Shown here piece by piece: positions 44,088 through 62,228 of a DNA stretch of 64,000 nt (its first letter is position 1; each line of letters starts with the position of its first letter). Source of the stretch: Bacteroidales bacterium (GTDB lineage Bacteria; Bacteroidota; Bacteroidia; Bacteroidales; UBA7960); NCBI GenBank assembly GCA_007118495.1, contig SKRM01000003.1, forward strand, positions 12,334 to 76,333, given 5' to 3'. Both the position numbers and the translations under genes were made by a program. The notes under the pieces were generated by a model. The model ran no database searches. It had not been told where the DNA came from and worked only from the letters and a program-made list of their open reading frames with translations.

Positions 44088-47000
44088 TTATGTGTTTAAA
44101 AATGTATTCTTCCAATTGTCATCAAAGCGCTTAACAAGGTAATCGCATCCATGATCAAACATTTTTTTGTTGGCTTCATGGGTGGTATACGCCAGCCTGT
44201 AAAGACCTTTGCTCTGATTGCCTACAAATGAGGCCACTTCAAGCATGACATCAGCAGGACCTTCGTAGTCTGCCTTGATTCCAAGGCCAAACAGAAGTGC
44301 TTTAAGTTGGGTCAGTGAACTAAATTCAAGATTTGATTGACTTACCGGCTCAAATTGCTGAATGAATTTCTGGGTATTGGTAAAACTGCCGCCAATTTCT
44401 GTGTGCAATGATGCCGGAAGCACCAAGTCAGCCAATTGTGCTGTATCTGACATAAACAGATCTTGCACCACCAGAAACTCCGTTTTTTTCAGTGTATTTG
44501 TAACCATTTGTCCCTCCAGGGCACAACCTGCCGGATCTTCACAGAAAATAAAAGCATTTTTTATTTTACCTGCTGAAAGTAAGGCCCACTGATCTTGTTC
44601 AATATAGGCCTGCATTGTATCGAGGCCCCAAATCTCAGCCAGTTTTTCAACTACCTTTGGTTCAGACATCATATTTCCGCCAGGGGCTAAGGCTGCACAC
44701 GCACCCATGTCAAGTAACCCTTGTGCATTGTTTTTTTCCTTTAATGGAATAAGTCCACTGGCAGTTTTACCACTTTTACCGGTAATCATGCATAGGTTTC
44801 TGAGCTCTTGTGAGGTTTGCGCGCTTACATTTTTTTCAGAGAATATGAGGATTGCGTGTGGTTCCTGGTTGAATTCCCGGGCAAACCGGGCAATTTCTTC
44901 TTCACTGCATCCAGCTTCATTTAACAAATGACCAAAGTCTTCAGAGAGCACTTTTTCGCGGTATGTTTCAAATGCATCGCAATGATCATCAATAAATACC
45001 ATGTTCTCCATTTTATTTGAAAGGACGTAATGGAGTACTGCTTTAACAAAATAATACCCTGACAACATTTGAACCACCCTGGTGGCCTTTTGCTTCATGC
45101 TGTTGTTATTCTTGCTGGTAATAAGCTCAAAGGGAGTGCCCTGGTTAAAATGGGTGTTGAAGGCTTCGTATCCCGGAACACCATGTTCGTAATTGATCTC
45201 TGAATCGAATATGTATATTCTGCCCGCTTTACTTATTTGTGTCAGGGGTACCGAAAACTGGCTGTTCAGAAAATAGCCTCCTCCACGGCCCATATAATGG
45301 AAACTGCTTACCTGGTTTGTTTTGACACCAGCCCGTGCAAGTTTCTGGATCAGGTACATTTCTTCATTGGTCAACCTGGCGCCAATGTAAAACCCGTTTT
45401 CAGCCGGCTGTACACTACTGATTTTTTCCAGTATGGTTTCAAAGGCCTCTTTAAAGGATATTTCAACAAATTTTCCGTCAATTTTTTTCAATGGTTTGGT
45501 GATGCGGCTTTTATCATTCAGGTAATGATATCCGAATTTGGCATAACGGCAAATGTTTCCGTTTTTATTAATCAGCCCTTTGCTGCCCGTTGTCCTTGAT
45601 ACGAACCCGCCCTTATGGTGAAGCTCTATCTGACACCCCACTGAACAATAATTACAAATGGTGGTCATCACATCGGTTGGTACAGGCATGGTCTTGAAAG
45701 GCACATTCTCTGTCAGGGCCCCCGTTGGGCAAGTATCAATACATAGTCCGCATGATTCACATTGGGTATCCTGCAGCCGACCATCCATTGATGGAGCTAT
45801 GTGGGTATCAAAGCCTCTGTTTACAAGACCCAGGGCGTTTGCACCGTTAACCTCTGAACAAATCCTGATGCAGCGCGAACAAAGGATACACTTATTGTTG
45901 TCAATTTCAATAAACGGATGTCCAAAATCAACCTGGTATTTGCGATATTCGCCTCCAAACCGCCTTTGTTCTGCCTTATACTGGCTGGCATACTTTTTCA
46001 GGTCGCATGTATGAAGTTCTGAGCAACCACATTCAAGACAGCGCCTGGTTTCTTCAATGGCTGCCTGTTGTCTGTAACCCAGTTCTACTTCATTGAAATT
46101 ATCCCTTGCCTGGGGATCAAGTGTGGGCATCTCTTCACGGATTTGCTCTTTGAAATGTCCGTGGTATTCTTCGCTGACCTGCTTTTCAAAATGGTCTTTT
46201 TTGCTTAAAAATTCTTTTACAGGGGGGGTGATCTCCTCATTGCGCAGCCATTTGCTGCAGCTGTTTGCTGCCAGCCTTCCCTGGGCTATGGCCTCGATCA
46301 GTGTGGCCGGGCCTGTTACGCCGTCACCACAGGCAAATACATTGTCAATGGAGGTCTGCAATGTATTTGTATCTGCATCTATATCTCCCCATTTGTTAAG
46401 TTTCAGCTCTCTGCCTGCATGCTCAGATATATTATCGATGAAATCTACTACGGTTTTCTGTCCGATGGCGGCAAGGATAAAATCTAATTTGACATCAAAC
46501 TCTGATCCTTCTATTTTCACAGGCCTTCTGCGGCCTGACGCGTCGGGCTCCCCAAGCTCCATCCGTATACAACTCAGCGATTCAAGGTTGCCGTTTTTGT
46601 CTTTGTTTACCCTGGCCGGGGCAGTGAGAAACATGTAGTTGATCCCTTCGAGTTTTGATTCGTGAATTTCAATGGGATTGGCAGGCATTTCCTTTTCGGT
46701 TCTCCTGTAAATAACTGTAACATCTTCAGCACCACATCGTTTTGCTGTCCTGCAGCAGTCCATGGCAGTGTTTCCACCACCTATAACGGCAACTTTTTTA
46801 CCTGTGAAGTCATATTTCTGACCAGTCATTTCCATGTTGCGGAGAAAATCAATCCCCGAAAAGATATTTCCGGCATCATCATTTTCACAACCTATACCTG
46901 TTCCTTTCTGAGAACCAATGGCCAATATGCTGGCATCATATTTATTCTTTAGTTCAGCGTAGTTGAGGTTATCACCCAGTTTTTTCCCATAATGGATGTT

Positions 47001-47777
47001 GACACCAAGACCTGTTATCCCTTCAATTTCTTTTTCAATCACCTCATTGGGAAGGCGGTAGGGGGGAATCCCGTACCTGAGCATTCCACCAGCATGTGGA
47101 CTTGCTTCAAATATATCCACATGGTGTCCATCAATTGCCAGGTAGTATGCAGCAGTTAAACCGCCGGGGCCGGCACCTATCACCGCTACTTTTTTTCCCG
47201 AGGCAGGTTTAACAACAGGCATATAGCGGTTGTCTGAAAACATATCAATATCTGAGGTATACCGTTTAAGGTAGTCAATACCCACGCCGATATCTTCAAG
47301 TAAATTTCGGCGACAAACAAGTTCACACGGCCGCACACATACCCTGCCGCAAATGGCTGGCAAGGGATTGGTTTGCTTGATCAATTCAACCGCTTCTCTG
47401 TGTTTACCCTTGCTGATCATGGATATATATCCCTGAACATCAACCCCTGCAGGACATTCTTCACGGCATGGAGGGGCACAGTCGGCATAATGGTTGCTGA
47501 CCAATAGTTCAAGGCTGAATTTTCTTGACCTGTGCACCCGGTCATTATCTGTTTCAATGCGCATCCCTTCAGTAATTCTGGTAGAACAGGCCGGCTGCAA
47601 ACCGCGCATACCTTCTACCTCAACTACACATAAATAGCAAGACGAAAACGGTTCAAGCCTGTCGTCATGACATAGTGTGGGAATTTCTATGTCCAGTCTC
47701 CGGGCCATTTCTAAAATGGTTTCACCCTTGATACCCTGTACTATTTTACCGTTAATGATGATATTGAGTTTACCCAT
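44088..47777 (-). CDS. NuoG/HydA-N-like FeS subunit fused to a GltD-like NAD(P)H flavoenzyme and a MopB-like domain (BfuA/NfnA-like)
   Basis: 1229 aa with four parts. (1) aa 1-80: plant-type 2Fe-2S, C36/C47/C50/C64. (2) aa ~95-510: GltD-like, with CAPPCREECP, CGRVCVRPCELVC, VAVIGAGPGG, GGMLRYGIPPYRLP, VIGGGNTAMD. (3) aa ~575-695: FeS clusters CLECGCSELHTC, CILCSRCIRIC, CESCGLCIDTCP. (4) aa 705-1229: CNYCSVGCQ..C plus a molybdopterin-oxidoreductase-like fold. Confidence 0.8.
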   Translation of the reverse strand: MGKLNIIINGKIVQGIKGETILEMARRLDIEIPTLCHDDRLEPFSSCYLCVVEVEGMRGLQPACSTRITEGMRIETDNDRVHRSRKFSLELLVSNHYADCAPPCREECPAGVDVQGYISMISKGKHREAVELIKQTNPLPAICGRVCVRPCELVCRRNLLEDIGVGIDYLKRYTSDIDMFSDNRYMPVVKPASGKKVAVIGAGPGGLTAAYYLAIDGHHVDIFEASPHAGGMLRYGIPPYRLPNEVIEKEIEGITGLGVNIHYGKKLGDNLNYAELKNKYDASILAIGSQKGTGIGCENDDAGNIFSGIDFLRNMEMTGQKYDFTGKKVAVIGGGNTAMDCCRTAKRCGAEDVTVIYRRTEKEMPANPIEIHESKLEGINYMFLTAPARVNKDKNGNLESLSCIRMELGEPDASGRRRPVKIEGSEFDVKLDFILAAIGQKTVVDFIDNISEHAGRELKLNKWGDIDADTNTLQTSIDNVFACGDGVTGPATLIEAIAQGRLAANSCSKWLRNEEITPPVKEFLSKKDHFEKQVSEEYHGHFKEQIREEMPTLDPQARDNFNEVELGYRQQAAIEETRRCLECGCSELHTCDLKKYASQYKAEQRRFGGEYRKYQVDFGHPFIEIDNNKCILCSRCIRICSEVNGANALGLVNRGFDTHIAPSMDGRLQDTQCESCGLCIDTCPTGALTENVPFKTMPVPTDVMTTICNYCSVGCQIELHHKGGFVSRTTGSKGLINKNGNICRYAKFGYHYLNDKSRITKPLKKIDGKFVEISFKEAFETILEKISSVQPAENGFYIGARLTNEEMYLIQKLARAGVKTNQVSSFHYMGRGGGYFLNSQFSVPLTQISKAGRIYIFDSEINYEHGVPGYEAFNTHFNQGTPFELITSKNNNSMKQKATRVVQMLSGYYFVKAVLHYVLSNKMENMVFIDDHCDAFETYREKVLSEDFGHLLNEAGCSEEEIARFAREFNQEPHAILIFSEKNVSAQTSQELRNLCMITGKSGKTASGLIPLKEKNNAQGLLDMGACAALAPGGNMMSEPKVVEKLAEIWGLDTMQAYIEQDQWALLSAGKIKNAFIFCEDPAGCALEGQMVTNTLKKTEFLVVQDLFMSDTAQLADLVLPASLHTEIGGSFTNTQKFIQQFEPVSQSNLEFSSLTQLKALLFGLGIKADYEGPADVMLEVASFVGNQSKGLYRLAYTTHEANKKMFDHGCDYLVKRFDDNWKNTFLNT

Positions 47778-47811
47778 GATTTCAAGTTGGAGTTGATTGA
47801 TTTTTTAATGA

Positions 47812-49590
47812 TCAGCTGATGGCTATGGCTTCAAATTTACACCTGGTAAGACAAACACCACATTGAATGCATAGCTCCTGGTCAATGTGATGCACCTGCT
47901 TTCTTTGTCCGGTAATGGCATCTACAGGGCAACCCTTGATACAAGCCATACATCCGGTGCATTTTTCTTCTGCGACAGTGTAGGTGAGTAATTTTTTGCA
48001 ACTTAGTGCGGGACATTTCTTATCGCGGATATGAGCTTCATACTCATCACGGAAATACTTAATGGTGGTAAGAACTGGATTGGGAGCAGTTTGCCCCAGT
48101 CCACAAAGTGAACTGTCTTTGATGGTTTCAGCAATCTCTTCAAGCAACTCAATATCGCCCTCTTTGCCTTCGCCCCCGGTAATCCGGGTAAGTGTCTCGA
48201 GCATACGTTTGGTTCCTATCCGGCAGAATGTGCATTTGCCACATGACTCCTTCTGTGTGAAATCAAGAAAAAATCTGGCGATGTCTACAACACAGGTTGT
48301 TTCATCCATGACCACCATACCTCCCGAACCCATGATGGCCCCGGTAGCGTTTACAGAATCATAATCAACCAGGGTATGTGAAAGGTGCTCGGGAATGCAA
48401 CCCCCTGAAGGACCTCCCAGCTGAACCGCCTTAAACCTTTTATTGTCAGTGATACCACCTCCAAGATTATAAATTATATCCTTGATGCTGATACCCATAG
48501 GAACTTCTACGAGTCCGCCGTGCCTGATTTTTCCTGTCAGGGCAAAAACCTTTGTTCCCTTTGATTTTTCTGTGCCATAACTGGCATATTTTTCGGGTCC
48601 ATGGTAAATGATCCATGGAATATTGATAAAAGTTTCGACGTTGTTTATATTGGTTGGATGTTTCCAGAGCCCTGCCTCGGCCGGAAACGGAGGCCGTCGC
48701 CTTGGCATGCCCCTGGCTCCCTCAATGGAGGCAATCAGGGCTGTTTCTTCGCCACAAACAAATGCTCCGGCGCCTTCTTTGATCTGCACATCAAAATCAA
48801 ATCCGCTGATCCCAAAAAGATTTTTACCGAGGTAACCTTTTTCTCTTGCCTGTACAATGGCCAGATTCAGACGTTTGATAGCCAGGGGATATTCTGCCCT
48901 GCAGTATATATATCCCGCATTGGCACCAATGGCATAGCCACAGATGATCATGCCTTCAAGCACGCCATGTGGATCGCCTTCAAGAATGGATCTGTCCATA
49001 AATGCGCCGGGATCACCTTCGTCGGCATTGCATATGACATATTTTTGCTCTGATTGATGATTTCGCGCAAACCTCCATTTCATGCCGGTAAGAAAGCCAC
49101 CGCCACCACGTCCTCTGATGCCCGAATCCAATACAGATTGAATAACCTGGTCGGGACTGATATTCTGGCCTGCAATTTTCCTGATGGCCTTGTAACCATC
49201 ACGTGCTTCATATTCACCAATTGACTCGGGGTCAATATGACCACAGTTTCTCAAACTTATCTTTACCTGACCTTCAAAAAACTGTGCATCAGCAGATACT
49301 ATTTTGTCAGATTGTACGATATACTCAGGAATCGGGGTGAATTTCCTTATATGTTTGTCAATGATTTCATCCACCCTCGGGATATCCACTTCGCCATACA
49401 TATAGGTTCCGGTATCATCTATAATCTCAACCAAAGGTTCCTTGTAGCACATGCCGATACAACTGGTTTTCTTGAGTTCAATATCCAGTTTGTCTGATTC
49501 GATAATGCGTTGGAACTCTTTGTATGTTTTGTTGGCTCCTGCAGCTATCCCACAACTTCCCAGGCCTACGATTACCTTTGTTTGTCCCAT
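47812..49590 (-). CDS. NuoF/HydB/HndC-like FMN- and NAD(H)-binding FeS subunit (BfuB-like)
   Basis: 592 aa. N-terminal thioredoxin-like 2Fe-2S region (GSCGIAAG..CIGMC). GRGGGGFLTGMKW FMN/NADH site. CGKCTFCRIG 4Fe-4S. C-terminal 2x[4Fe-4S] (CTGCMACIKGCP, CIQCGVCLTRC). Confidence 0.9.
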   Translation of the reverse strand: MGQTKVIVGLGSCGIAAGANKTYKEFQRIIESDKLDIELKKTSCIGMCYKEPLVEIIDDTGTYMYGEVDIPRVDEIIDKHIRKFTPIPEYIVQSDKIVSADAQFFEGQVKISLRNCGHIDPESIGEYEARDGYKAIRKIAGQNISPDQVIQSVLDSGIRGRGGGGFLTGMKWRFARNHQSEQKYVICNADEGDPGAFMDRSILEGDPHGVLEGMIICGYAIGANAGYIYCRAEYPLAIKRLNLAIVQAREKGYLGKNLFGISGFDFDVQIKEGAGAFVCGEETALIASIEGARGMPRRRPPFPAEAGLWKHPTNINNVETFINIPWIIYHGPEKYASYGTEKSKGTKVFALTGKIRHGGLVEVPMGISIKDIIYNLGGGITDNKRFKAVQLGGPSGGCIPEHLSHTLVDYDSVNATGAIMGSGGMVVMDETTCVVDIARFFLDFTQKESCGKCTFCRIGTKRMLETLTRITGGEGKEGDIELLEEIAETIKDSSLCGLGQTAPNPVLTTIKYFRDEYEAHIRDKKCPALSCKKLLTYTVAEEKCTGCMACIKGCPVDAITGQRKQVHHIDQELCIQCGVCLTRCKFEAIAIS

Positions 49591-49610
49591 GGTAATTATA
49601 TCTTTTGGTA

Positions 49611-50132
49611 TTAATTGATTTCGCTTCTGCGTATTTCTTTGATGATCTTTACAGCTTCCTTTGGCGTTAATTTCCCATAGGTTTCTTCTCCGATCATCAT
49701 TACGGGCGCCAGTGAGCAGCAGCCCAGGCAGGCTACTGTTTCAACAGTAAATAGCCGGTCAGAGGTGGTTTCACCGTCTTTGATCTGCAGCATATCAAGT
49801 ATTTCATCGGTAATAGCTGTTACACTCTGAACATGACAGGCTGTCCCATGGCACATTTTTACAATGTGTTTTCCGGCGGGTGCCAGCCTGAATTGCGCAT
49901 AAAATGTAGCTACTCCGTACATTTCATTCAGTTCAAGACCTGTTTCTTCATGGATGCGGTAAAAGGCCGCACGGGGAAGAAATCCATATATATCCTGTGT
50001 GCCCTGCAACAAGGGTATAAGGTTCCCTTTTTTTGTTTTGTATTTTGCAATGAGTCCATCCATCAGGCTTAGATCAACCTGAATCTCGGGTGTTTCATTT
50101 ATTTGCCGGGGCTTGATTCTTTCAATGCGCAT
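49611..50132 (-). CDS. NuoE/HydC/HndA-like 2Fe-2S subunit (BfuC-like)
   Basis: 173 aa. MCHGTACHV and CLGCCSLAPVMMI provide the four cluster cysteines. Confidence 0.9.
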   Translation of the reverse strand: MRIERIKPRQINETPEIQVDLSLMDGLIAKYKTKKGNLIPLLQGTQDIYGFLPRAAFYRIHEETGLELNEMYGVATFYAQFRLAPAGKHIVKMCHGTACHVQSVTAITDEILDMLQIKDGETTSDRLFTVETVACLGCCSLAPVMMIGEETYGKLTPKEAVKIIKEIRRSEIN

Positions 50133-50377: not shown

Positions 50378-51715
50378 TTAGATTACGCCCTGGTCAATCA
50401 TGGCATCGGCTACCTTTATAAAGCCTGCAATGTTTGCTCCTTTAACGTAGTTTATGTATCCATCCTCTTCTGTACCATGTTTCTTGCAAGCTTCATGAAT
50501 GTTCTTCATGATCTGGTGCAGTTTTTCCTCAACTTCTTCAGCTGTCCAGTTGAGTTTCATGGCATTTTGGGTCTGCTCAAGACCTGATGTGGCTACACCA
50601 CCTGCATTGGCAGCTTTGCCGGGGCCGTATAGTACCTTGGCTTCCTGAAGAATTTCAACTGCTTCAGGCGTACAGGGCATATTGGCTCCTTCTGAAATCG
50701 CCATGACGCCATTATTCACCAGGTTTTTGGCGTCTTCTACATCAAGCTCATTCTGGATGGCGCAGGGCATGGCTATGTCGCACTTGACTTCCCACGGACG
50801 CTTGCCTTCAAAGAATTGTGCATTGGGGAATTCATAGGTATATGGCTTTACAATATCCTGGTTTGAGGCACGAAGTTCGAGCAGATAGTCGATCTTATCG
50901 CCAGAAATTCCATCCGGATCATATACATAACCATCAGGACCACTAATGGTAACTACTTTTGCACCCAGCTGGGTTGCCTTGCTGGCAGCACCCCATGATA
51001 CGTTACCGAATCCTGAAATAGCTACGGTTTTACCCTGAAGCTTCTCACCACGGGTTTTGAGCATTTCTTCTGCAAAGTATACAGCTCCGTATCCGGTAGC
51101 CTCAGGACGGATCAGGCTGCCGCCCCAGTTACGTCCCTTGCCTGTGAATGTGCCGGTATGCTCGCCTGTAAGCTTTTTGTACATACCAAACATATAACCA
51201 ATTTCACGGCCACCAACTCCAATGTCTCCTGCCGGAATATCGGTGTCTGGTCCGATGTATTTATACAGCTCAGCCATGAATGCCTGGCAGAAACGCATAA
51301 TTTCAGACTGGGACTTGCCTTTTGGGTCAAAGTCAGATCCGCCTTTTGCACCACCCATTGGAAGTGTGGTCAGGCTGTTTTTGAAAATCTGCTCAAAACC
51401 AAGGAATTTCAGTCCGCTGAGGGTAACACTTGGGTGGAAGCGACAACCGCCTTTATAAGGCCCGATAGCATTGTTAAATTGCACACGGTAACCTCTGTTT
51501 ACATGCACATTGCCTTTGTCATCAACCCATTGAACTTTGAAGGAAATCACCCTATCGGGCTCAGTTATTCTTTCAATAATGTTAGCAGCCTGATATTTTG
51601 GGTTTTCAGCAACCACGTCAATGATGGTTTCAAGAACTTCCCTTGCTGCTTGCAAAAACTCTTTTTCGCCCGGATTCTTGCGTTCCAGGTCAGCCATTAT
51701 TTTTTCTAAATTCAT
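50378..51715 (-). CDS. gdh: Hexameric glutamate dehydrogenase, Clostridium symbiosum / Bacteroides GdhB-like dinucleotide fingerprint (probably NAD(H)-preferring)
   Basis: 445 aa. [15 protein letters not shown] catalytic Lys region. Rossmann turn ISGFGNVSWGAA followed by TISGPDGYVYDPDG, which I recall from the NAD-specific C. symbiosum enzyme. Confidence 0.9.
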   Translation of the reverse strand: MNLEKIMADLERKNPGEKEFLQAAREVLETIIDVVAENPKYQAANIIERITEPDRVISFKVQWVDDKGNVHVNRGYRVQFNNAIGPYKGGCRFHPSVTLSGLKFLGFEQIFKNSLTTLPMGGAKGGSDFDPKGKSQSEIMRFCQAFMAELYKYIGPDTDIPAGDIGVGGREIGYMFGMYKKLTGEHTGTFTGKGRNWGGSLIRPEATGYGAVYFAEEMLKTRGEKLQGKTVAISGFGNVSWGAASKATQLGAKVVTISGPDGYVYDPDGISGDKIDYLLELRASNQDIVKPYTYEFPNAQFFEGKRPWEVKCDIAMPCAIQNELDVEDAKNLVNNGVMAISEGANMPCTPEAVEILQEAKVLYGPGKAANAGGVATSGLEQTQNAMKLNWTAEEVEEKLHQIMKNIHEACKKHGTEEDGYINYVKGANIAGFIKVADAMIDQGVI

Positions 51716-51821: not shown

Positions 51822-54800
51822 TTATTTTTCAGGTTTTAATACAATTCCTGTCTTTTTACTGCCGTCAATTTTGATCACTGCCGGACAGTTAAAACCAACA
51901 TGTCTGATATAGTCATCTTCAAAGGCTGCATCTTGCTCTTCAAGATATGAAGTGTCATAATAACCATCTTTAACGTAAGGGTTTATGGTAAAATATCCTA
52001 CATGAAAAGAGGTGAGGTTCTGGAAAAAGTGTGTACCCTGGCTCGGATCAATGTGATAGTCTTTCAGACTTGACTCAACAATCAGCCTGGCGGCCGAGAT
52101 CTGCGCCCATTTTACAGGTATGCCCAACCATGGATCATTGGAGCCCCAGCGTCCGGGTCCGATAAGAATGTAATTCTTGCCTTCTTTGGCAAGCATGGCA
52201 TTCAACTTGTTAATAGTCAATGCCATTTCTTTGGTTTTGGCCGGATCGAAAGCTCGGGGTTTTACGTAAACTATATCCCTGATGTTGTCAATTATTCCAT
52301 TGCCCAGTGCATTTCTGCTTATTATTATTGACTCACTGGGTTTGCAGATATTGACCCTGACCCTGTTCTTCTCTTGTGTTGCAACAACAGGTCTGATCTG
52401 GAGAAAATGAAACTGCCTATTCTCTCCTTTGGGAACATCAAGGTTAACCGCAAATTCAATTTCTACCTGGTTGTTCATCTCCTGCTGCCCGGTTTGCAAA
52501 AGTTTTTGCACAATTTCGGCAAGCGGAAAAGATTGGTGTTTTATGACATTGGCAAAAGTAATGATCCTGGTGCCAGTCTCGTATATTCCATCTCTGATGA
52601 TCTGGTCTTCATAATCATAGGTTGATGCCACGAATTTCAGAGCCGACTCACCTTTTATATTTCTTATTTTTATATGGTGTAAATTGATGGTTTCATCCAC
52701 AGCTGGTTGAAACTTTTCCGGATCAAGGTTCAGGCTATAGAACTCTTTTTGGCTGTCACGAAGGGCAATATCAGTGTTTGCCAGTTGCAGTGCCTTTTGA
52801 GGATATCGTGGACAGAAGCGAAGCGACATTCCCCCATCCATGATGGTTTTACCCAAACCAAATGCAATATTGGCGATACCATCTTCATATTTTTCAGGAT
52901 CAATTGGATAGAAATTCACCGACCTGGCCACGCCCGATATGGTAGGATAAAACATATTACCGTACGACCTTCCTGAAATCTCCTGGATCACCACAGCCAT
53001 TTTTTCCTCATCAATTACATTTGAAGTAGCCTCGATATATGACTTACTTTCCTGATAAAATACTGAAGCATATACACTTTTTATTGCCTGTTCAAGCTGC
53101 TGAATCCTTACATTGAGATCATGGTGGTTGTTGGGAATCATGTATGTCGAGTATACTCCTGCAAAAGGCTGATAGTGACTATCCTCAAGAAGACTTGAAG
53201 AGCGGACTGCCAGAGGCGATTTGAAAAATTCAACGATTTCCTTTGCATATGATTTCATTCTTGACGGTGTTCTGGCATAGATGAATTTTTCAAGAACGTC
53301 CTTGTCATTCAGCTGGGCAAGTGCCACCGAATACATATCGTTTTCTTCCATGAACTCATCAAAAATATCGGTGGTCAAAACCACGGTTCTGGGCACAGAA
53401 ACAGTCACACCATCCCAGCGATACATAATTTTATGCTTATTGATTACAGAGTCAATGAAGGCTAACCCCCGGGCTTTTCCGCCAAGCTGACCATCTCCAA
53501 GCCTGGTGAATACGGCATACTCATCAAGGTGGCTGGCAATGATGCCCCGCCCTTTGGTTCTTCTGTAATTGGCAATGGTGTCAATAAGGTAGTTTCGGAT
53601 TTCTTCAATATTATTGAAGTCATCGCGGCTTTTCTGTGCAAAAACATTGGCGATTGAAAACAATGCCCTGGCTTTCAGCCACCTTGAAAAATGATTGTTA
53701 GATACATGATATTCCAATACCTTGGGTTCAGCCTTGGAGATTTTTACCTGCAATGAATGCAGATTATTTGCCCGGCCTGACTCAATCCCGGTTGACGGAT
53801 CCTTAAATACAAAATCTCCAAAGCCGTAGTTTTCTTTGATATAGTGCTTAAGCTCAATGAGAAGGGTGTTGGAATATTTGTCGATAAAACTGACATCAAT
53901 ATCTTTGTTGATTGTTGCGTCCCATTTTTCAGATGACTGCAGCAGGATAGGGATATTCGGGTTTTTTTTCCGCACATGTTTGGCCAGCTTTACCCCGGCC
54001 TGGTCATCACGCTCTCCTTCTCTGGTATAACTAATGTCTGAAATAATTCCCAGCAGGTTGTCCTTGTATTTTTTATATAATTCAACGGCTTCTTCATAGG
54101 TTTTGGCCAGCAGTATTTTTGGCCTGGCACGCATTCGGAGCGTTTTGCGGTGTTCATTCAGGCCCTCAGTCATCAGTTCATTGGTCTGGTCAAAAATAAC
54201 CTTGTAAATGGTGGGCAGGTAAGATGAATAATACCGAATAGAGTCTTCAACAAGCAAGATGCCCTGTACACCGATCTTCTCAATATCAAAATCAGCATTC
54301 ATTCTGTCTTCAAGCAGTTTGATGATTGCCAGAAGCAGCCCTGCATTGCCAAGCCAGCTGAATACGTAGTCAATGGAGCTGAGGTCTTCGTTACGCAACT
54401 TAATGGAGACCTCTCTTGAGAAATGGGTAAGTACTACAATGGGAATGCCCGGATGTTTCTTTTTAACTTTTTTAGCCATTTCGAAACAATCAATCTTTCC
54501 GACATTGAGCATGGTAATCACCAGATCAAAATCTTTTTCCTTCATCAGATTGAAGGCCTCTTCTGATGAACTGGCTTTGGTAAACTGGGGCGGATACCTT
54601 AGGTTTTTTGATGTGTACTCCAGAAATATTTTCTCATTGATCCGGCCATCTTCTTCAAGCATAAACGCATCGTAATTACTGCAAATGAGCAACACATTGA
54701 TGATGCGCTTTTGCATAAGGTCTTCATATGATATCTCCTTAAACTCGTATGTATCGGTCGCGTAGCTATCGTCGTATTTATATTTTGAGTATTCTTTCAT
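51822..54800 (-). CDS. Pseudo-receiver + receiver + PEP-synthase/PPDK-type ATP-grasp + swivel-like C-terminal domain protein (paralog B)
   Basis: 992 aa.
- Pseudo-receiver, aa ~33-170: FDLVITMLN, with Met at the acceptor position.
- Receiver, aa ~178-310: ILLVEDS, IISD(255)IS, LLQSS, FIDK.
- PPDK_N motifs: GGKARGLAF, AVRSSSLLEDSHYQPFAG, MAVVIQE, ISGVARSVNFYP, EIEFAV, FLQIRP.
- C-terminus: ILIGPGRWG, GIPVKW, SQGTH(924)FFQN.
- No PEP/pyruvate TIM barrel. Confidence 0.75.
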   Translation of the reverse strand: MKEYSKYKYDDSYATDTYEFKEISYEDLMQKRIINVLLICSNYDAFMLEEDGRINEKIFLEYTSKNLRYPPQFTKASSSEEAFNLMKEKDFDLVITMLNVGKIDCFEMAKKVKKKHPGIPIVVLTHFSREVSIKLRNEDLSSIDYVFSWLGNAGLLLAIIKLLEDRMNADFDIEKIGVQGILLVEDSIRYYSSYLPTIYKVIFDQTNELMTEGLNEHRKTLRMRARPKILLAKTYEEAVELYKKYKDNLLGIISDISYTREGERDDQAGVKLAKHVRKKNPNIPILLQSSEKWDATINKDIDVSFIDKYSNTLLIELKHYIKENYGFGDFVFKDPSTGIESGRANNLHSLQVKISKAEPKVLEYHVSNNHFSRWLKARALFSIANVFAQKSRDDFNNIEEIRNYLIDTIANYRRTKGRGIIASHLDEYAVFTRLGDGQLGGKARGLAFIDSVINKHKIMYRWDGVTVSVPRTVVLTTDIFDEFMEENDMYSVALAQLNDKDVLEKFIYARTPSRMKSYAKEIVEFFKSPLAVRSSSLLEDSHYQPFAGVYSTYMIPNNHHDLNVRIQQLEQAIKSVYASVFYQESKSYIEATSNVIDEEKMAVVIQEISGRSYGNMFYPTISGVARSVNFYPIDPEKYEDGIANIAFGLGKTIMDGGMSLRFCPRYPQKALQLANTDIALRDSQKEFYSLNLDPEKFQPAVDETINLHHIKIRNIKGESALKFVASTYDYEDQIIRDGIYETGTRIITFANVIKHQSFPLAEIVQKLLQTGQQEMNNQVEIEFAVNLDVPKGENRQFHFLQIRPVVATQEKNRVRVNICKPSESIIISRNALGNGIIDNIRDIVYVKPRAFDPAKTKEMALTINKLNAMLAKEGKNYILIGPGRWGSNDPWLGIPVKWAQISAARLIVESSLKDYHIDPSQGTHFFQNLTSFHVGYFTINPYVKDGYYDTSYLEEQDAAFEDDYIRHVGFNCPAVIKIDGSKKTGIVLKPEK

Positions 54801-57800
54801 GCTTTTGGTTGGGTGGTTAGGTCAAAGTAGATCAGTGATGCGCGTTTTTTCCCATCCATAACTACTTCAAGCGGATTGTCAAATCGCACGTGCTTCAGGT
54901 ACCTGGTTTCATTAATTAAATTTGCACCCTGAAGCACTTCCCAGTTGATATAGTCTATAAGGTCATTGTGTCTTACTGAGAAATAACCCACATTCATTGA
55001 TATGACATTGTGGAAAAAATGGGAGCCAAGAGAAGCATCAAGCGGAAAATCTTCCATGCTCATCTCAACAATTATTTTTGCATTTGATATCTGCGACCAG
55101 TTAACCGGTATGCCGATAAAACGATCACGGGTTCCCCACCGACCTGGGCCTATGAGGATGTATTTACGGTTTTCGGCCGACATGATTGAATTGATCTTGT
55201 CAATTTCATCTCTTATCTTTTCGGTTTTCAGCTTATCGAAACAGTCAAGGTCGACATATACCACATCATAAATATCATTTATCCGGCCATTCCCCATGCC
55301 ATTTTCGCAATAGAGCAGTAACCTGTCATTATCAATTTTGTCAATATTGATTTCGGTTTCGATAATGTTTTTTATGAGTGGTTTGATCTGAAGCAGGTAA
55401 AACGATGCATGTCCTTCTTTGTTTTTTTCCAGGTCAACCGCGAACTCCATTTCAATAGGTGTCCCCATTGACTCAGAAATAATGTCAAGCAATACTTCAA
55501 TGGTTTTGGCAAGAGGGATATAATCGTATTTAAGAATATTGGCAAAATTAACTACCCTGGGGCCGGGATCAGTGATTCCGGGGATTAATCGTTCACTTGT
55601 AATATCGTATACCGAAGCACAATGTTTAAGGGTTCCGTGTTTTTCTGACTGTTCAATCTCAAGTTTTATAAGGCCTGCTTCTTCACCCTCCATAAGATCA
55701 AGATTATGCTTGCCCATGTCTACGGCATAAAAATGCACCTGAGAGTTTTTAAAAAGCTCTTTGGGTGTATACATTTCAAGCTGGGGATGAACAGGAGAAA
55801 AACGATAGGTTTTTTCGCCTTCAACCACATATTTTCCCAATCCGACAGCAACAGAGGCGAAGCCTTCGTCAGGCTTCATGTATGAATATGGATAAAAATT
55901 GTAAGACTGTGCAACCCCGCTGATATGCGGATAATAATTTCCATTATAATGATGCCCTACAACCTCTTGAATGATCACGGCCATCTTTTCTTCTTCAATT
56001 TTATAATTGACAGCCTTAAAGTATGCGGTGGCTGTGGGTGAAAATATGGATGCAAATACAAGCTTTATGGCTGTCATTACCTGCTCAAGCCTGACATTGA
56101 TATCGGGATGGTTGTTGGGCAACAAAAAGGTATCGAAAATACCGGCAAAAGGTTGCATGAGGGAGTCTTCAAACAGGCTCGAAGAACGTATGGCCAGAGG
56201 CCTTTCAATAATTGACAAATAGGCTTTTAACCTTTTTCGCAAGGTTGGAGTCAGGCTGCCTGCCGCAAATAACTCTTTTATCTTTTCGTAATCGGTTTCA
56301 CCGTAAATCTTATTGTAAAGGTTGTTGTTTTCAACAAAGCGCTCAAATTCTTCGGTTCCGATAATGGAAGTTCTCGGGGTGCATATACTGATATCAGGAA
56401 CCAGTTCACTAAAATCAAAACTATTGATGATCATATTGATGAAAGCCAACCCCCGGCCTTTCCCTCCCAATGACCCTGGTGAAAGACTCACCACATTGGT
56501 TTTGTCCATCAGGGCAGATTCTTCATAGTTAATCACCCGGCCCTTTTGTTTATCATGAATGCATTGTTCTATTACATCAATAAGGTAGTCTCTGAGACTG
56601 CCTGAAGATTTGAAGTCTTCAACTTTAAGTGGTTTGATACGGCGGGCTATCTGAATCTCACCCCTGGCCATCAACCAATGTGAAAAATGGTCTTTCTTCG
56701 CGTGGTAGATCAGCGATTTTTCAGGGATGGTTTTCAGATGTGTCTGGAATTCTTTCATAGATCTGGCTACGGCAATATCCCGCCGTCCTTCGTCGTCTTT
56801 GTAGATAAAATGACCAAAGCCCAGATAATAATTAATAAAACTTTGCAAATCCTGTTTTAAAGTATCAGAATTCTTGTTGATGAATGTTGACTTCAACTTG
56901 TATGCTTCAGTGGCATTTTCCGGATCAGATGACTGAAGCACCGTGGGTAGGTTGGGCGCGTTATTTTTGGCATATTCAACAAGCTTGAGCCCAGCCTTTG
57001 CATCCATCTCACCGTCTTTCTCGAACTTAACATCAGATATCAGACAAAGAAGATTGTCTCTGTACTTATTAAATAGCGTTACAGCTTCATTGTAGTTTGA
57101 GGCCAGCAAAACCTTTGGCCTTACACGCATTTTCAGAAGTTTGTATAGTTCGTCTGTATTTACCTCTTCGATCAGTTGCTGGGTTTGTTCTATAACGATT
57201 GAGTAGAGGATGGGGAGGTAACGTGAGTAATATTTTGCAGAATCTTCAACCAGCAAGATAACCTGAACCATACCAATCCGGATATCACTCTCTACATTCA
57301 TCCGGTCTTCATTGTATTTAACCATGGCCAGAAAGACCTTACTGTCGCCATTCCAGACAAAGACCTTGTCAATAGAGGTAATGGGTTTGTTCCCGTCTTC
57401 AAATAAGGCGATATCACTGTTGTTGTTGAGCAACATGAAAATGGGGATGCTGTGGTAAATCTGTTTGATAATGCGGCTCAGCTGAATGGGTGTTGACTTT
57501 TCAACCCCCATCATGACGATAACCAGATCAAAATGTTTTTCCTGCAGCTTTTCAAGTGCTTCTTCAGGGGTTGACACCCCGGTAATACGTGGGGCTGAAG
57601 ACAGGTTTAACTGGTAATATTCACCCGTAACCTGTTCAAAAAAACGTCCTTCCTGCTCAATGATATAGGCATCATACAAATTGGCCACCAGGAGTATCTC
57701 TCTGACTTTGTATTGCATCAGGTCATGGTAAATATCCCTGTCAGAATTATGCTTATTAAGAAATTTTTGCAAGAGTTGACGACTCATTGCCGAATGGGCA

Positions 57801-58351
57801 CGTTCTTGCTTAAGCACCTCACTGTCTTTGGTTTGGGAGGCAGCTTTTTTGAGATATTCTTTCCCTATCTGTGTATTCAGATGCCCGGTTATCAGGCTGC
57901 TCAGGTTGTTGATCAGGTGACGTTCTTCTATGAAAAAAGGACCTTCATCAACTTCAGGAAACTCTTTTTCGTAAAACACCTCAATACATCCTTCTTTACC
58001 ATCAATGGTTTCAAACGTTTTCCGTTGAACCCATTTGGTTTCTTTCATGCCCTGCTTGCTTTTAAACTGCATATCCCCGTACTTAATGCGGGCTGTTGTG
58101 TGTTCGGGATGTTGCCATGCGGGGGGAATGATCTCTGCGATCTTTTGCAGCATTTCAGGGATGGGCTTCTCTTCTTTCAGAATGTTGGTGGTCTGATGGA
58201 TGGCACCAAGCTCCTTAAGCCTTTCCTGTTTTTCTGCCAGCAATTGCCTGATCTCTTCATGACTGATGGTTAATTGAATATCCTTATCAGAATCAAAAGA
58301 CAGGCCTTCTTTCAGGAGTTCTGATTTAATTTTCTGCAAGTTTTTTCCCAT
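54797..58351 (-). CDS. Sensor-like N-module + pseudo-receiver + receiver + PEP-synthase/PPDK-type ATP-grasp + swivel-like C-terminal domain protein (paralog A)
   Basis: 1184 aa.
- N-module, aa ~60-157: IIPPAWQHPE..GCIEVFYEKEFPEVDEGPFFIEERHLINNL.
- Pseudo-receiver, aa ~215-350: FDLVIVMMG.
- Receiver, aa ~362-495: ILLVEDS, LISD(440)V, VLQSS, FINK.
- PPDK_N motifs: GGKGRGLAF, AIRSSSLFEDSLMQPFAG, MAVIIQE, ISGVAQSYNFYP, EMEFAV, LLQIKP.
- C-terminus: ILIGPGRWG, GIPVNW, SLGSH(1111)FFHN.
- Its stop overlaps the paralog B start in ATGA. Confidence 0.75.
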   Translation of the reverse strand: MGKNLQKIKSELLKEGLSFDSDKDIQLTISHEEIRQLLAEKQERLKELGAIHQTTNILKEEKPIPEMLQKIAEIIPPAWQHPEHTTARIKYGDMQFKSKQGMKETKWVQRKTFETIDGKEGCIEVFYEKEFPEVDEGPFFIEERHLINNLSSLITGHLNTQIGKEYLKKAASQTKDSEVLKQERAHSAMSRQLLQKFLNKHNSDRDIYHDLMQYKVREILLVANLYDAYIIEQEGRFFEQVTGEYYQLNLSSAPRITGVSTPEEALEKLQEKHFDLVIVMMGVEKSTPIQLSRIIKQIYHSIPIFMLLNNNSDIALFEDGNKPITSIDKVFVWNGDSKVFLAMVKYNEDRMNVESDIRIGMVQVILLVEDSAKYYSRYLPILYSIVIEQTQQLIEEVNTDELYKLLKMRVRPKVLLASNYNEAVTLFNKYRDNLLCLISDVKFEKDGEMDAKAGLKLVEYAKNNAPNLPTVLQSSDPENATEAYKLKSTFINKNSDTLKQDLQSFINYYLGFGHFIYKDDEGRRDIAVARSMKEFQTHLKTIPEKSLIYHAKKDHFSHWLMARGEIQIARRIKPLKVEDFKSSGSLRDYLIDVIEQCIHDKQKGRVINYEESALMDKTNVVSLSPGSLGGKGRGLAFINMIINSFDFSELVPDISICTPRTSIIGTEEFERFVENNNLYNKIYGETDYEKIKELFAAGSLTPTLRKRLKAYLSIIERPLAIRSSSLFEDSLMQPFAGIFDTFLLPNNHPDINVRLEQVMTAIKLVFASIFSPTATAYFKAVNYKIEEEKMAVIIQEVVGHHYNGNYYPHISGVAQSYNFYPYSYMKPDEGFASVAVGLGKYVVEGEKTYRFSPVHPQLEMYTPKELFKNSQVHFYAVDMGKHNLDLMEGEEAGLIKLEIEQSEKHGTLKHCASVYDITSERLIPGITDPGPRVVNFANILKYDYIPLAKTIEVLLDIISESMGTPIEMEFAVDLEKNKEGHASFYLLQIKPLIKNIIETEINIDKIDNDRLLLYCENGMGNGRINDIYDVVYVDLDCFDKLKTEKIRDEIDKINSIMSAENRKYILIGPGRWGTRDRFIGIPVNWSQISNAKIIVEMSMEDFPLDASLGSHFFHNVISMNVGYFSVRHNDLIDYINWEVLQGANLINETRYLKHVRFDNPLEVVMDGKKRASLIYFDLTTQPKA

Positions 58352-58551
58352 GGTAGTATTAATACGAAAATGCGCATATGAAAGTACAAAATTTCCATGT
58401 ATTCAAATACCCGGTGTTTATTTAGACATGTATTCATTTGGTCACGATTGCATACGTATGTCTACTTAAATGATTGATCTCTTGCGAATGTGGTATGATT
58501 TTGATGTTATATATTTTAGCCAATATATTCAAATATTTAAACCCCTTTCTC

Positions 58552-60738
58552 ATGGTCAGACAAACTACTTTTTTTGCTTTTTTTCTTGGACTAAACATTT
58601 TACTGTCAGCACAACCTAAACCATTTACGGTTGCTGATGCCATCAACGTAAAGTCATTTGCCATTCATGACGTATGTTCAGACGGTGCATTCATGGCTGG
58701 TCTTATGTCGAGCAGGCACCATATGTTTAATGTAGACCACACCAGGCACAGAGATCCATCTTATGTGGGGCAATTCACCTCTGATTTGTATGTACTGCAT
58801 GGACCAGGTCATGAAATGATTCCTTTGTTTGACAAACCCGCTGTGCATAACAACCTGCGATTGTCACCAGACGGGCAATTACTTGCATTTCTGCGGTATG
58901 AATACGAAACAACCAGTCTTTATATTTATGATGTCAGGCGCAATAGGATCCGGAAAGTCAACATAAAAACTGATCATGATATTGCCTCAAATTCGCCCCT
59001 GGTGTGGACTCCTGACGGAGGAGGAGTTGTTTTGGCATTTCGTGAGCATGGATGGAAAGAAATAGGTGATTCTATGTATACTGAAGCCACCAAAGGCCCA
59101 ATTACGGTGTATGACTCCAGTCAACCCTTTTTAAAATGGGAAAAAATCAACCACCATGCTTCTTTGTCTAAAATTGGTCTGGTGTCACTTGATAACAGAA
59201 AAGTAAGCTGGTTGCTTGAAGAAGCTCGTTACAGCAATATCCGCATATCTGCAGACGGGACATTTCTGTCATATGAAGAAGTTCACCCCAAAAAAAGTGC
59301 ATACGACCGACGTAATGAAGCTGATTATGAACTTAAATATATCAGGCTTGACCAACCTGACGAAATGCATGTTCTTATTGAAAAAAGTACTAACAGGATC
59401 AATGTGACCTGGAACCCTGACAATGATGTTTTTGCTACCATTGATTCTAACCGGGTGGCCCTGCGTGCTATTACCGAAGAAAAAATGCGGATTTTGACCT
59501 CAGACACAGTTGAAATATCGGGCACTGATACCACCAAGGTACAACTTCGCATAAACAGATGGCGCCCTGATGGAAAGAAAATTCTGGCCACTTCATCACG
59601 AGGTTATTGGCTTGTGGATGCAGAAAATGGAAACATGGAAAATGTATACAGATTTCCTGAAGACAGAAAAATTGCACCTGAGTTGAATATAAGCCAATGG
59701 TCACCTGACGGACGTTTCTTGTATCTTACCTATTCTGCACACGATAAGTGGGAGAGAGGTATGATCAGCTTAGATCTGGATGAGCTTAAAACAAAAAATT
59801 TGATACTGGATAGCAATTTGTACACACGATGGAGACTTTCAGATTCGGGTAAATATTTTATATATCAGAAATCAGATGGCGATATGCCCCCGGATTATTA
59901 TATGGCCAATGCTGACTTTGCCGAATCAAGAAGGTTAACTGACCTGAATCCATGGATGCGTGATCGCAAGATTTCAAAAAGTGAACTGGTCAGTTACCGT
60001 GATGCTGACGGTGAACTACTCTACGGGATTCTATATTATCCGGTTGATTATGAACCGGGCAAACAGTATCCACTAGTGTGTGAACTGTATGAAAGCTTTT
60101 TTCACAATGGTTACCGGCTTACCATGCAATTAATTGCCAATGAGGGTTATTTTGCGTTTTTGCCATCTGTGAATTTTATTGAAGGATACCCGGCAGAAGC
60201 ATGGATCAAGGGGGTTACCTCAGGCATTAATAAACTCATTGACAGAGGATTTATAGATGAGAAAAAGATAGGTGTTTATGGTGTCAGCTACGGTGGATAT
60301 GCTACCTCATTGCTAATCAGTCAAACCGATAGGTTTGCAGCTGCTATAAATATCAGTGGGAAAGTAAATATCATCAGTTTTCTTGGTGACAGCCCCCGGA
60401 TAGGGCGGCGAAATTATACTGCGGCTGAGATGGGGCAAGATAGAATTGGAGCTACTTTATGGGAAGCACCCATGAAATATATTGCTACATCTGCTGTCTT
60501 GCATGCAGATCGTATCAATACCCCGCATCTGCTTATGACTGGAGAGGGAGACTGGAATGTGCCGGCATCAAATACACGTGAGCTGTATTATGCTTTGCGT
60601 CGCCTTGACAAAGAGGTCGTATGGGTTAATTACCACCGTGGTGGTCATGTAGCTGGCCTTGCCAGCACTGAAAGCGACTTTTATGATCATTGGCAGCGCA
60701 TGTTTGATTGGTTTGACAAGTATTTTACTAAAGAGTAA
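58552..60738 (+). CDS. S9 family serine peptidase (prolyl oligopeptidase / dipeptidyl-peptidase-like) with beta-propeller
   Basis: Signal peptide MVRQTTFFAFFLGLNILLSAQP (start set at ATG 58552; the ORF track starts at 58474). WxPDG propeller repeats. Nucleophile elbow GVYGVSYGGYAT. GEGDWNVP (Asp) and RGGHV (His). Confidence 0.88.
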   Translation: MVRQTTFFAFFLGLNILLSAQPKPFTVADAINVKSFAIHDVCSDGAFMAGLMSSRHHMFNVDHTRHRDPSYVGQFTSDLYVLHGPGHEMIPLFDKPAVHNNLRLSPDGQLLAFLRYEYETTSLYIYDVRRNRIRKVNIKTDHDIASNSPLVWTPDGGGVVLAFREHGWKEIGDSMYTEATKGPITVYDSSQPFLKWEKINHHASLSKIGLVSLDNRKVSWLLEEARYSNIRISADGTFLSYEEVHPKKSAYDRRNEADYELKYIRLDQPDEMHVLIEKSTNRINVTWNPDNDVFATIDSNRVALRAITEEKMRILTSDTVEISGTDTTKVQLRINRWRPDGKKILATSSRGYWLVDAENGNMENVYRFPEDRKIAPELNISQWSPDGRFLYLTYSAHDKWERGMISLDLDELKTKNLILDSNLYTRWRLSDSGKYFIYQKSDGDMPPDYYMANADFAESRRLTDLNPWMRDRKISKSELVSYRDADGELLYGILYYPVDYEPGKQYPLVCELYESFFHNGYRLTMQLIANEGYFAFLPSVNFIEGYPAEAWIKGVTSGINKLIDRGFIDEKKIGVYGVSYGGYATSLLISQTDRFAAAINISGKVNIISFLGDSPRIGRRNYTAAEMGQDRIGATLWEAPMKYIATSAVLHADRINTPHLLMTGEGDWNVPASNTRELYYALRRLDKEVVWVNYHRGGHVAGLASTESDFYDHWQRMFDWFDKYFTKE

Positions 60739-60875: not shown

Positions 60876-62228
<1,353 letters not shown>

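Follow-up and report, generated by a model that had tools for sequence, protein, structure and literature searches.

What is the function of two large, adjacent genes that join bacterial receiver domains to the ATP-grasp domain of phosphoenolpyruvate (PEP) synthase and that carry no classical response-regulator output domain? The question is raised by a stretch of 64,000 nucleotides, called the window here, from a Bacteroidales bacterium (GenBank assembly GCA_007118495.1, contig SKRM01000003.1, positions 12,334 to 76,333 of the forward strand), in which the two genes, paralog A and paralog B, lie in tandem on the minus strand. An initial annotation made from the letters of the window alone had read them as receiver-controlled, ATP-dependent phosphotransferases. 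Our analysis leads us to propose, tentatively, that A and B are orphan response-regulator-type enzymes in which a receiver gates an ATP-driven histidine phosphotransfer at the glutamate/2-oxoglutarate node of metabolism. The most informative feature, missed by the initial annotation, is that genes of this family repeatedly stand next to genes for glutamate dehydrogenase (GDH, gdh) or a 2-oxoglutarate oxidoreductase (korAB), a linkage that appears to be new.

A and B are overlapping paralogs

54797..58351, minus strand: paralog A, 1184 aa, from its open reading frame (ORF) and Pfam; sensor-like module, aspartate-less receiver, receiver, linker, ATP-grasp domain (PPDK_N) and C-terminal domain (CTD)
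51822..54800, minus strand: paralog B, 992 aa, from its ORF, Pfam, homologues and an AlphaFold2 (AF2) model with a mean predicted local distance difference test (pLDDT) of 81; same domain order without the N-terminal module

Lengths, coordinates and strand of both ORFs are as first annotated, and the overlap described for them is borne out by the junction sequence, AAA GCA TGA AAG, in which the ATGA at 54800..54797 holds the stop of A and the start of B. The paralogy proposed over nearly the whole length of B also holds, because residues 208-1174 of A and 25-987 of B align in BLASTP with 38% identity and 60% positives over 970 aa (E = 0). The predicted domain order proved right as well: a pseudo-receiver comes first, then an intact receiver, a linker, an ATP-grasp of the PpsA/PPDK type and, last, a C-terminal domain of about 180 aa. 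The cluster representative P0121 is identical to A and has 120 orthologues at 66-86% identity; the nearest relatives of the window are Bacteroidales metagenome-assembled genomes. Public data hold more than 8000 related clusters at 90% identity, so the A/B pattern is not due to chance.

Locus counts in this study refer to the best 80 species-representative loci out of at least 599 relatives, with flanks of up to 10 kb. An A-type gene occurs in 15 of these 80 loci, each time directly upstream of B, and the two genes are spaced by -4 to +30 nt in 13 of the 15 loci in which both are intact, while B without A is the usual state in most genomes. Such close spacing supports co-translation, and A and B therefore probably form a heteromer. 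The tandem pair, which appears to be new, thus looks like a lineage-specific elaboration of a single-gene system.

The ATP-grasp domain is predicted to be catalytically competent

55367..56473, minus strand: ATP-grasp domain of A (PF01326), residues 627-995; E 4.7e-40, 138 bits
52359..53489, minus strand: ATP-grasp domain of B (PF01326), residues 438-814; E 1.2e-37, 130 bits, with Foldseek, profile alignment to 5hv6 and conservation

PF01326 (PPDK_N), expected from the first reading, is detected in both proteins against a cut-off of 27 bits. Foldseek against the PDB matches the domain to rifampin phosphotransferase (5hv3, E 9e-11), HpeI (E 1.9e-09) and pyruvate phosphate dikinase (PPDK), so that two of the enzymes named at the outset as likely structural relatives, rifampin phosphotransferase and PPDK, were indeed recovered; its profile also aligns to the ATP-grasp of 5hv6. 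The motifs GGK.RG, RSSS..ED, (V/I)IQE, E.EFA and LQ.(R/K)P are present and conserved in A and B. Conservation was assessed in 45 full-length representatives with 33-49% identity to B, whose numbering is used here: K442, R533, S534, S535, E539, D540, Q606, E782 and Q801 occur in 45/45, E780 occurs in 44/45, and position 803 is R or K. Judged by these alignments, the domain retains every nucleotide- and Mg-binding residue, and its catalytic competence is predicted.

Could A and B then simply be an ordinary PEP synthase or PPDK? Some database names say so, and there are weak partial matches to PpsA equivalog models. However, where NCBIfam models of PpsA, PPDK, rifampin phosphotransferase and PigC/RedH match, they cover no more than about 150-200 ATP-grasp residues and score 20-55 bits, under their cut-offs of 600-1350 (the rifampin phosphotransferase model NF041857, for example, scores 21-24 bits against a cut-off of 999, and only the ATP-grasp aligns). 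Neither the swivel domain PF00391 nor the TIM barrel PF02896 gives a match on whole A or B or on the isolated CTD; both proteins end about 180 aa after the ATP-grasp, in a domain unrelated to swivel or barrel. This confirms that the PEP/pyruvate TIM barrel and any classical response-regulator output are absent, as first noted, and Pfam finds no DNA-binding domain in A or B. The database names "phosphoenolpyruvate synthase" and "pyruvate, phosphate dikinase" are therefore rejected on domain content, and we regard such an enzyme as next to impossible here.

The C-terminal domain appears to be new and carries an invariant histidine motif

54800..55366, minus strand: CTD of A, residues about 996-1184, with GPGRWG and S-L-G-S-H1111-F-F-H-N, from alignments
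51825..52358, minus strand: CTD of B, residues 815-992, from an AF2 model of the domain alone, with G881-P-G-R-W-G886, E909 and S920-x-G-T-H924-F-F-x-N928

The CTD motif S-x-G-(S/T)-H-F-F-x-N is invariant among the 45 representatives, and R884, E909, S920, G922, H924, F925, F926 and N928 are found in 45/45; W885, D889, W898 and Y936 are further highly conserved polar or aromatic residues. The numbering of the candidate residues proposed at the start is correct for A (D440, H1111) and for B (D255, H924). The domain occurs in 1774 representative clusters at 50% identity, always after PPDK_N in the members examined. In the full B model (pLDDT 81, from an alignment of 101 A-type and B-type orthologues) a low-confidence hinge at 807-812 precedes an alpha/beta CTD, which modelled alone reaches a pLDDT of 85.5 and a predicted template-modelling score (pTM) of 0.86. 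H924 begins a short helix after Gly and Ser/Thr, and the loop 920-924 has low confidence in the full-length model; in the models, therefore, the loop of H924 and H1111 is presumably flexible, and the position of H924 resembles that of the catalytic histidine of dikinases, although the fold differs.

The phosphohistidine swivel domain that an enzyme of this superfamily would be expected to have is not recognisable in A or B. Foldseek finds no match of the CTD fold in the PDB (best E 0.016, probability 0.23, template-modelling score (TM) <0.3), the noise matches being thioredoxin-like folds and T4 polynucleotide kinase (PNK), and the CTD sequence has no match in a profile search of the PDB or in Pfam and NCBIfam. 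An approximate form of the PS00370-type histidine pattern is absent from A and B, and no PpsA/PPDK genes, the source for a swivel profile, are found among the fetched loci. Pfam/NCBIfam, PDB profile, Foldseek and pattern thus agree in finding no swivel domain. It follows that we infer the step from ATP to histidine from one invariant histidine, and that the CTD, with its invariant histidine motif, appears to be a new domain in its own right that has no known relative.

The lack of the known dikinase partner domains raises the alternative that A and B are non-catalytic sensors, in which the ATP-grasp would bind adenine nucleotides to report energy charge and the protein would serve as a scaffold or allosteric regulator without phosphotransfer. 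The many degenerate signalling domains of the family, the aspartate-less receiver among them, fit this idea, but E780/E782, Q801, R/K803, K442, R533 and the CTD histidine are conserved, at 33-49% identity, far beyond what ligand binding needs, and we consider such a sensor quite improbable.

An intact receiver lies behind an aspartate-less receiver

57272..57715, minus strand: aspartate-less (pseudo) receiver of A, residues about 213-360; partial PF00072 and alignment to B
56819..57271, minus strand: divergent receiver of A with acceptor Asp440, residues about 361-511; alignment to the second receiver of B, with invariant E, D, D and K columns
56492..56818, minus strand: helical linker of A with the motif H..W..AR, residues about 512-620; weakly DUF5752-like (PF19027, A 529-595)
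54273..54713, minus strand: aspartate-less receiver of B with Met97 and Trp149, residues about 30-176; PF00072 at 38.8 bits and model topology
53823..54272, minus strand: receiver of B with E185/D186, D255, S289 and K308, residues about 177-326; conservation, model, Foldseek and profile
53490..53822, minus strand: linker of B, residues about 327-437, a beta-hairpin and five helices; H365, W374 and R378 conserved

PF00072 is found, as expected from the initial annotation, on the first receiver and there partially (B 72-130, 38.8 bits; A 254-311, 25.8 bits; cut-off 30.2). Methionine in place of the acceptor aspartate, another point of that annotation, is confirmed by alignment and model. In the AF2 model of B, Met97 stands where the acceptor would be, at the end of strand beta3, and all 101 orthologues in alignment A1, A-type and B-type alike, have Met there. 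Among the residues listed for the 45 representatives the position holds Met in 24, Thr in 7, Phe in 6, Leu in 2 and Asn in 1, with no Asp. The acidic pair of this receiver is replaced by Cys/Ser-Ser and the lysine position by an almost invariant Trp.

The second receiver is intact, as had been claimed, though it is too divergent for Pfam (13.3 bits, E 0.098 against PF00072, under the gathering threshold). E185, D186, D255, S289 and K308 are invariant or nearly so in the 101 orthologues; the domain has (beta-alpha)5 topology in the AF2 model, where B shows two such units in succession; and all 20 of the 20 weak PDB matches of its profile (E 0.02 to 1) are receivers. The receiver matches of Foldseek in the PDB include PleD, 3luf/3mf4, CheB, NtrC1 and PorX. 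The presence of an intact second receiver hidden behind a pseudo-receiver appears to be a new observation. In the linker that follows, H365 is conserved in 39/45, W374 in 45/45 and R378 in 40/45 representatives. DUF5752 (PF19027) scores just short of its cut-off of 23 bits there (A 22.7 bits; B 22.1 bits on the isolated linker), and some orthologues bear a precomputed PF19027 match. A side observation is that the linkers of A (529-595) and B (348-419) align to different halves of DUF5752, positions 134-208 and 20-105 of 208, respectively, which suggests that DUF5752 may have arisen by internal duplication of the H..W..AR helical unit.

D255 is present in 40/45 representatives and K308 in 41/45, the Asp being replaced or missing in 5/45. 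Since residues of the ATP-grasp and CTD reach 45/45, the ATP-grasp and CTD core is, on these alignments, the most constrained part of the protein. The conservation check proposed at the outset thus shows the ATP-grasp residues and the histidine kept and the receiver Asp kept in most orthologues, and because the catalytic residues and the candidate histidine are conserved, and the receiver Asp mostly so, the initial annotation withstands it.

The family also includes variants. P0297 is without the Asp-bearing half of the second receiver and keeps the full ATP-grasp and CTD motifs. P0262 and P0290 may, to judge from their sequences, be true receiver-less forms, again with full core motifs, whereas shorter relatives are mostly fragments or proteins with wrongly called starts. 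In P0247 (1639 aa) and P0285 (1654 aa) two ATP-grasp and CTD cores are fused head to tail. The C-terminus of P0285 is in addition an NTP_transf_2/Pol-beta domain (residues 1531-1597); with only this one example, the fusion could be real or could stem from assembly or annotation.

These data bear on the self-contained relay that was suggested more speculatively at first, in which the phosphate would pass from ATP to His924 (H1111) and on to Asp255 (D440) of the same or the partner receiver, so that the proteins would replace a histidine kinase and give their output through protein-protein interaction. An intact receiver and an invariant histidine do lie in one polypeptide, receivers are known to accept phosphate from phosphohistidine donors, the tight coupling of A and B would permit phosphotransfer between them, and no conserved histidine kinase gene is found nearby. 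However, all 45 representatives keep the histidine motif, whereas about 10% of them have lost the receiver Asp, and P0297 and the possible receiver-less forms keep the full ATP-grasp and CTD motifs, so that the core appears to work without the Asp. In addition, such a relay would leave no output domain, and orphan response regulators are so common that a missing nearby kinase is weak evidence. The relay thus finds no direct support; it is mildly disfavoured by these patterns, and we judge it improbable.

The family is linked to gdh and korAB genes

50378..51715, minus strand: glutamate dehydrogenase of PRK14030 type (NCBIfam NF010633, 821 bits), 106 bp downstream of B on the same strand
60888..62228, plus strand: second glutamate dehydrogenase, NADP-specific, of PRK09414 type (NCBIfam NF006929, 763 bits), divergent from A and past an S9 peptidase gene

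The two GDHs of the window, which belong to different subfamilies, enclose the A-B pair. The 106-bp spacer between B and gdh contains no terminator-like site in a scan whose counts were at shuffle level, as they were for promoters and terminators across the operon with a sigma-70 consensus that does not cover Bacteroidota promoters. This arrangement is not peculiar to the window. A 445-aa GDH lies in the flank of 26/80 loci and a large GDH of about 1040 aa in 1 further locus of the 80; the large form is also found, outside the 80, in L004 and L005 (Lentisphaerota contigs with the same protein P0080) and on the 3-Mb contig L003. In 14/80 loci a KorAB-like 2-oxoacid:acceptor oxidoreductase (TIGR03710 alpha plus beta subunit) is encoded directly upstream on the same strand. 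Altogether, a gdh or KorAB-like neighbour is present at 38/80 loci, and at 20/42 of those with at least 5 kb on both sides, against a random-gene expectation within 10 kb of about 1-2% by our own rough estimate. No other gene family is comparably linked; FabD, FolE and QueD come next, each limited to one lineage.

The linked genes are mostly immediate neighbours and take several arrangements. In one, korA-korB-(A)-B-gdh, all genes share a strand; Flavobacteriia have gdh-B-gdh; and in the window, as in L010, L026, L086 and L087, a gdh gene diverges from A-B-gdh. L086 and L087 retain the four-gene cassette at 62-63% identity, although all of its outer neighbours are different there. Such varied arrangements and differing outer flanks point to selection for the linkage rather than inherited synteny, as far as gene order can tell. 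Because relatives adjoin gdh or 2-oxoglutarate oxidoreductase genes, A and B probably act on the glutamate/2-oxoglutarate step. Two further loci deserve mention for their layout. L038 (443..8106), from a Bacteroidota metagenome-assembled genome, has the order B-gdh-B, with two B-type genes around a single gdh on one strand, and in L086 B is separated from the downstream gdh by a gene (13082..14212) for a Crp/Fnr-family regulator (cNMP_binding and HTH_Crp_2).

Linkage of this kind also suits another explanation, that the ATP-grasp and CTD core is a small-molecule dikinase or kinase of the glutamate/2-oxoglutarate pathway, whose CTD would bind the substrate and whose receivers would tune the activity. 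Known PPDK_N enzymes mostly phosphorylate small molecules (pyruvate to PEP, phenol to phenylphosphate, rifampin), and the top fold matches are rifampin phosphotransferase, HpeI and PPDK. The CTD is rich in invariant polar and aromatic residues (R884, W885, D889, W898, E909, H924, N928 and Y936), as a ligand pocket would be, the position between korAB and gdh is operon-like, and P0262 and P0290 are possibly receiver-less. However, these two proteins are candidate forms only, and none of the pathway steps known at this node calls for an enzyme of this kind. Two receivers and the sensor modules of A are more typical of signalling proteins, and the identical active-site residues of A and B argue against two different substrates. 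By analogy with these enzymes a small-molecule role deserves to be kept in view, and we rate it as unlikely.

Paralog A carries an additional sensor-like module

57866..58234, minus strand: sensor-like module of A, residues about 40-162, about 125 aa, without a family; repeats in relatives and profile search

The N-terminus by which A exceeds B measures about 190 residues and contains a module of about 125 aa that has no Pfam, NCBIfam or PDB relative. It is repeated in other members, with 4 copies in P0216 and 3 in P0331, which add nothing beyond the extra copies. A profile search, which returned short or fragmentary proteins only, matches fragments with HisKA or an AraC helix-turn-helix (HTH), fragments named methyl-accepting chemotaxis protein (MCP) or histidine kinase, and stand-alone proteins of about 192 aa in Desulfobacterales. 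Given its repeats and its occurrence beside signalling domains, the module behaves, at the level of sequence, like a portable, sensor-like input module, and its description appears to be new. Its consensus reads ERLKEL..IN.T...AWQYPE.T.ARI.Y.G.EY.S..F.ET.W....F....GK.G.IEV.Y...FP...EGPFL.EER.L, and it is common in signalling proteins of Bacteroidota, Desulfobacterales and Thermoplasmata-like archaea (seen in P0216, P0331, P0470 and P0480).

Other genes of the neighbourhood

58474..60738, plus strand: S9 peptidase between A and the second gdh; TTG start, 754 aa against 728 aa in the public call
49611..50132, minus strand: NuoE-like 2Fe-2S protein just downstream of gdh, from Pfam
47812..49590, minus strand: NuoF-like protein, from Pfam
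44088..47777, minus strand: 1229-aa fusion of GltD-like Fer4_20/Pyr_redox_2 and molybdopterin formate-dehydrogenase-like domains, from Pfam

In Bacteroides bouchesdurhonensis (L059, 4589..9632) the place corresponding to that of the S9 peptidase gene is taken by genes for a prolyl oligopeptidase and an M24 prolidase. The peptidase genes suggest that the cluster may have a peptide to glutamate catabolic theme. By their domains, the genes at 44088..50132 look like a soluble NAD(P)H-linked complex of the formate dehydrogenase or hydrogenase type. Further on, genes for a rubrerythrin (43619..44074, minus strand) and an Mrp/Mbh-type proton antiporter subunit (40485..42791, minus strand), with an HSP20 gene between them on the other strand, fit an anaerobe and have no evident tie to A and B. 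PADLOC found no defence-system match in the window, and on this result a defence system was ruled out.

Discussion

How might these proteins work? We tentatively favour the view that A and B are receiver-gated histidine phosphotransfer enzymes. By analogy with dikinases, the ATP-grasp would load a phosphoryl or pyrophosphoryl group from ATP onto the CTD histidine, with the CTD as a non-homologous stand-in for the swivel domain. The group would then be passed to a target at the glutamate/2-oxoglutarate node, for which the likeliest candidates are the GDH isozyme(s) or the KorAB-like oxidoreductase encoded next door. Phosphorylation of the second receiver by a histidine kinase would gate the activity, and the pseudo-receiver might serve as a dimerisation adaptor, as in PleD. 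Where both paralogs are present they would be translationally coupled and probably form a heteromer, in which A would add the N-terminal ligand-sensing module.

With regard to the target, a regulatory role on the GDH isozymes is favoured because the protein contains signalling domains, because the gene lies between two opposed isozymes reported to be reciprocally controlled, and because the title of a 1996 paper names trans-acting gene(s) near gdhA. Two Bacteroides GDH isozymes are described as being under reciprocal control (via PMC4539542), and according to its title, as cited in PMC4539542, Baggio & Morrison 1996 found that GDH activity depends on trans-acting gene(s) near or downstream of gdhA. 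The tie between our family and these gene(s) is a lead, not a result. The more specific proposal, that the family is a Bacteroidota post-translational switch, namely a receiver-gated, dikinase-derived protein phosphotransferase with a new phosphohistidine carrier that reciprocally switches GDH isozymes and/or KorAB, is in our view rather doubtful as a whole.

Several observations weigh against the mechanism that we favour. Histidine phosphorylation is argued from conservation and analogy, since the CTD is a swivel domain by no test. About half of the loci have no gdh or korAB within 10 kb, including those of the cultured Bacteroides L051 and L053, and the neighbourhoods of the locus set contain no conserved histidine kinase gene. 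In the Bacteroides-genus loci L059, L061 and L062 the family gene is upstream of gdh and divergent from it, whereas the 1996 title says "downstream". Finally, linkage does not separate a GDH regulator from an enzyme of the same pathway or a sensor of the same metabolite.

Comparison with known systems helps to place the family. PpsA and PPDK share with A and B a homologous N-terminal ATP-grasp (PF01326) with conserved motifs, but A and B are without swivel and TIM barrel and have two receiver-fold domains, a helical linker and an unrelated CTD of about 180 aa instead. Rifampin phosphotransferase (RPH, 5hv1/5hv3) likewise has an ATP-grasp, and a small histidine-bearing domain at the extreme C-terminus on a flexible linker. 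It differs in having a canonical swivel and a large rifampin-binding domain, whereas A and B have another CTD fold, no substrate-binding insert and added receivers. The split dikinases phenylphosphate synthase PpsAB and HpeHI (9goj), which act on phenolic substrates and have the swivel domain on a partner subunit, demonstrate that PPDK_N can work with a histidine carrier outside the classical three-domain chain. Their swivel is recognisable, however, and no conserved gene for such a swivel-domain partner is found beside A and B in the neighbourhoods of the locus set. PleD resembles A and B in its tandem of a phosphorylatable and a degenerate receiver before an enzymatic domain, and Foldseek aligns both receivers (E about 1e-07), but in A and B the order is reversed, with the pseudo-receiver first, and the output is ATP-grasp and CTD rather than GGDEF. 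AceK and the PPDK/PEPS regulatory proteins are dedicated phosphotransfer switches of branch-point enzymes, with genes often beside that of the target; to A and B they offer a functional analogy only, without a sequence or fold relationship.

The architecture itself is not novel. A response-regulator census (Galperin et al. 2018, PMC5847659) lists a class "REC-pyruvate phosphate dikinase" described as "Bacteroides-like", which A and B fit as receivers fused to PPDK_N, and Maule et al. 2015 (PMC4395418) found aspartate-less receivers enriched on PPDK-type effector domains. In the parts that deal with this class, both papers catalogue the domain combination only, without the CTD, the second receiver, the sensor module or the gdh/korAB linkage. 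The statement in the initial annotation that no characterised member is known has therefore to be divided: the combination was already catalogued, as these census passages show, whereas our literature search found no functional or structural study of the receiver-PPDK_N family and only the two census papers.

In a scan of one genome per GTDB species we find at least 599 relatives, nearly all in Bacteroidota, with a few in Victivallales/Lentisphaerota and others in genomes that bear the label Chlorobiota. The human gut and many anoxic sediments are habitats dominated by Bacteroidota, a phylum for which we know of no classical nitrogen signalling of the NtrBC/GlnD type. Little is understood of how its members change over, at the GDH step, between assimilating ammonia and breaking down amino acids. 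With thousands of members, predicted catalysis, fusion to receivers and repeated linkage to gdh and 2-oxoglutarate oxidoreductase genes, the family is a concrete and testable candidate for this switch. Experiments are feasible, since homologues occur in the cultured and partly genetically tractable genera Bacteroides, Parabacteroides, Gillisia and Lutibacter. Older reports describe reversible in vivo inactivation of the GDH of B. fragilis, which such a switch, if true, would explain. It would equally explain the trans-acting gene(s) of 1996 that affect GDH activity in Bacteroides thetaiotaomicron, and it would extend the PEP-synthase/PPDK superfamily to a form without swivel or substrate barrel, whose CTD is without a structural relative.

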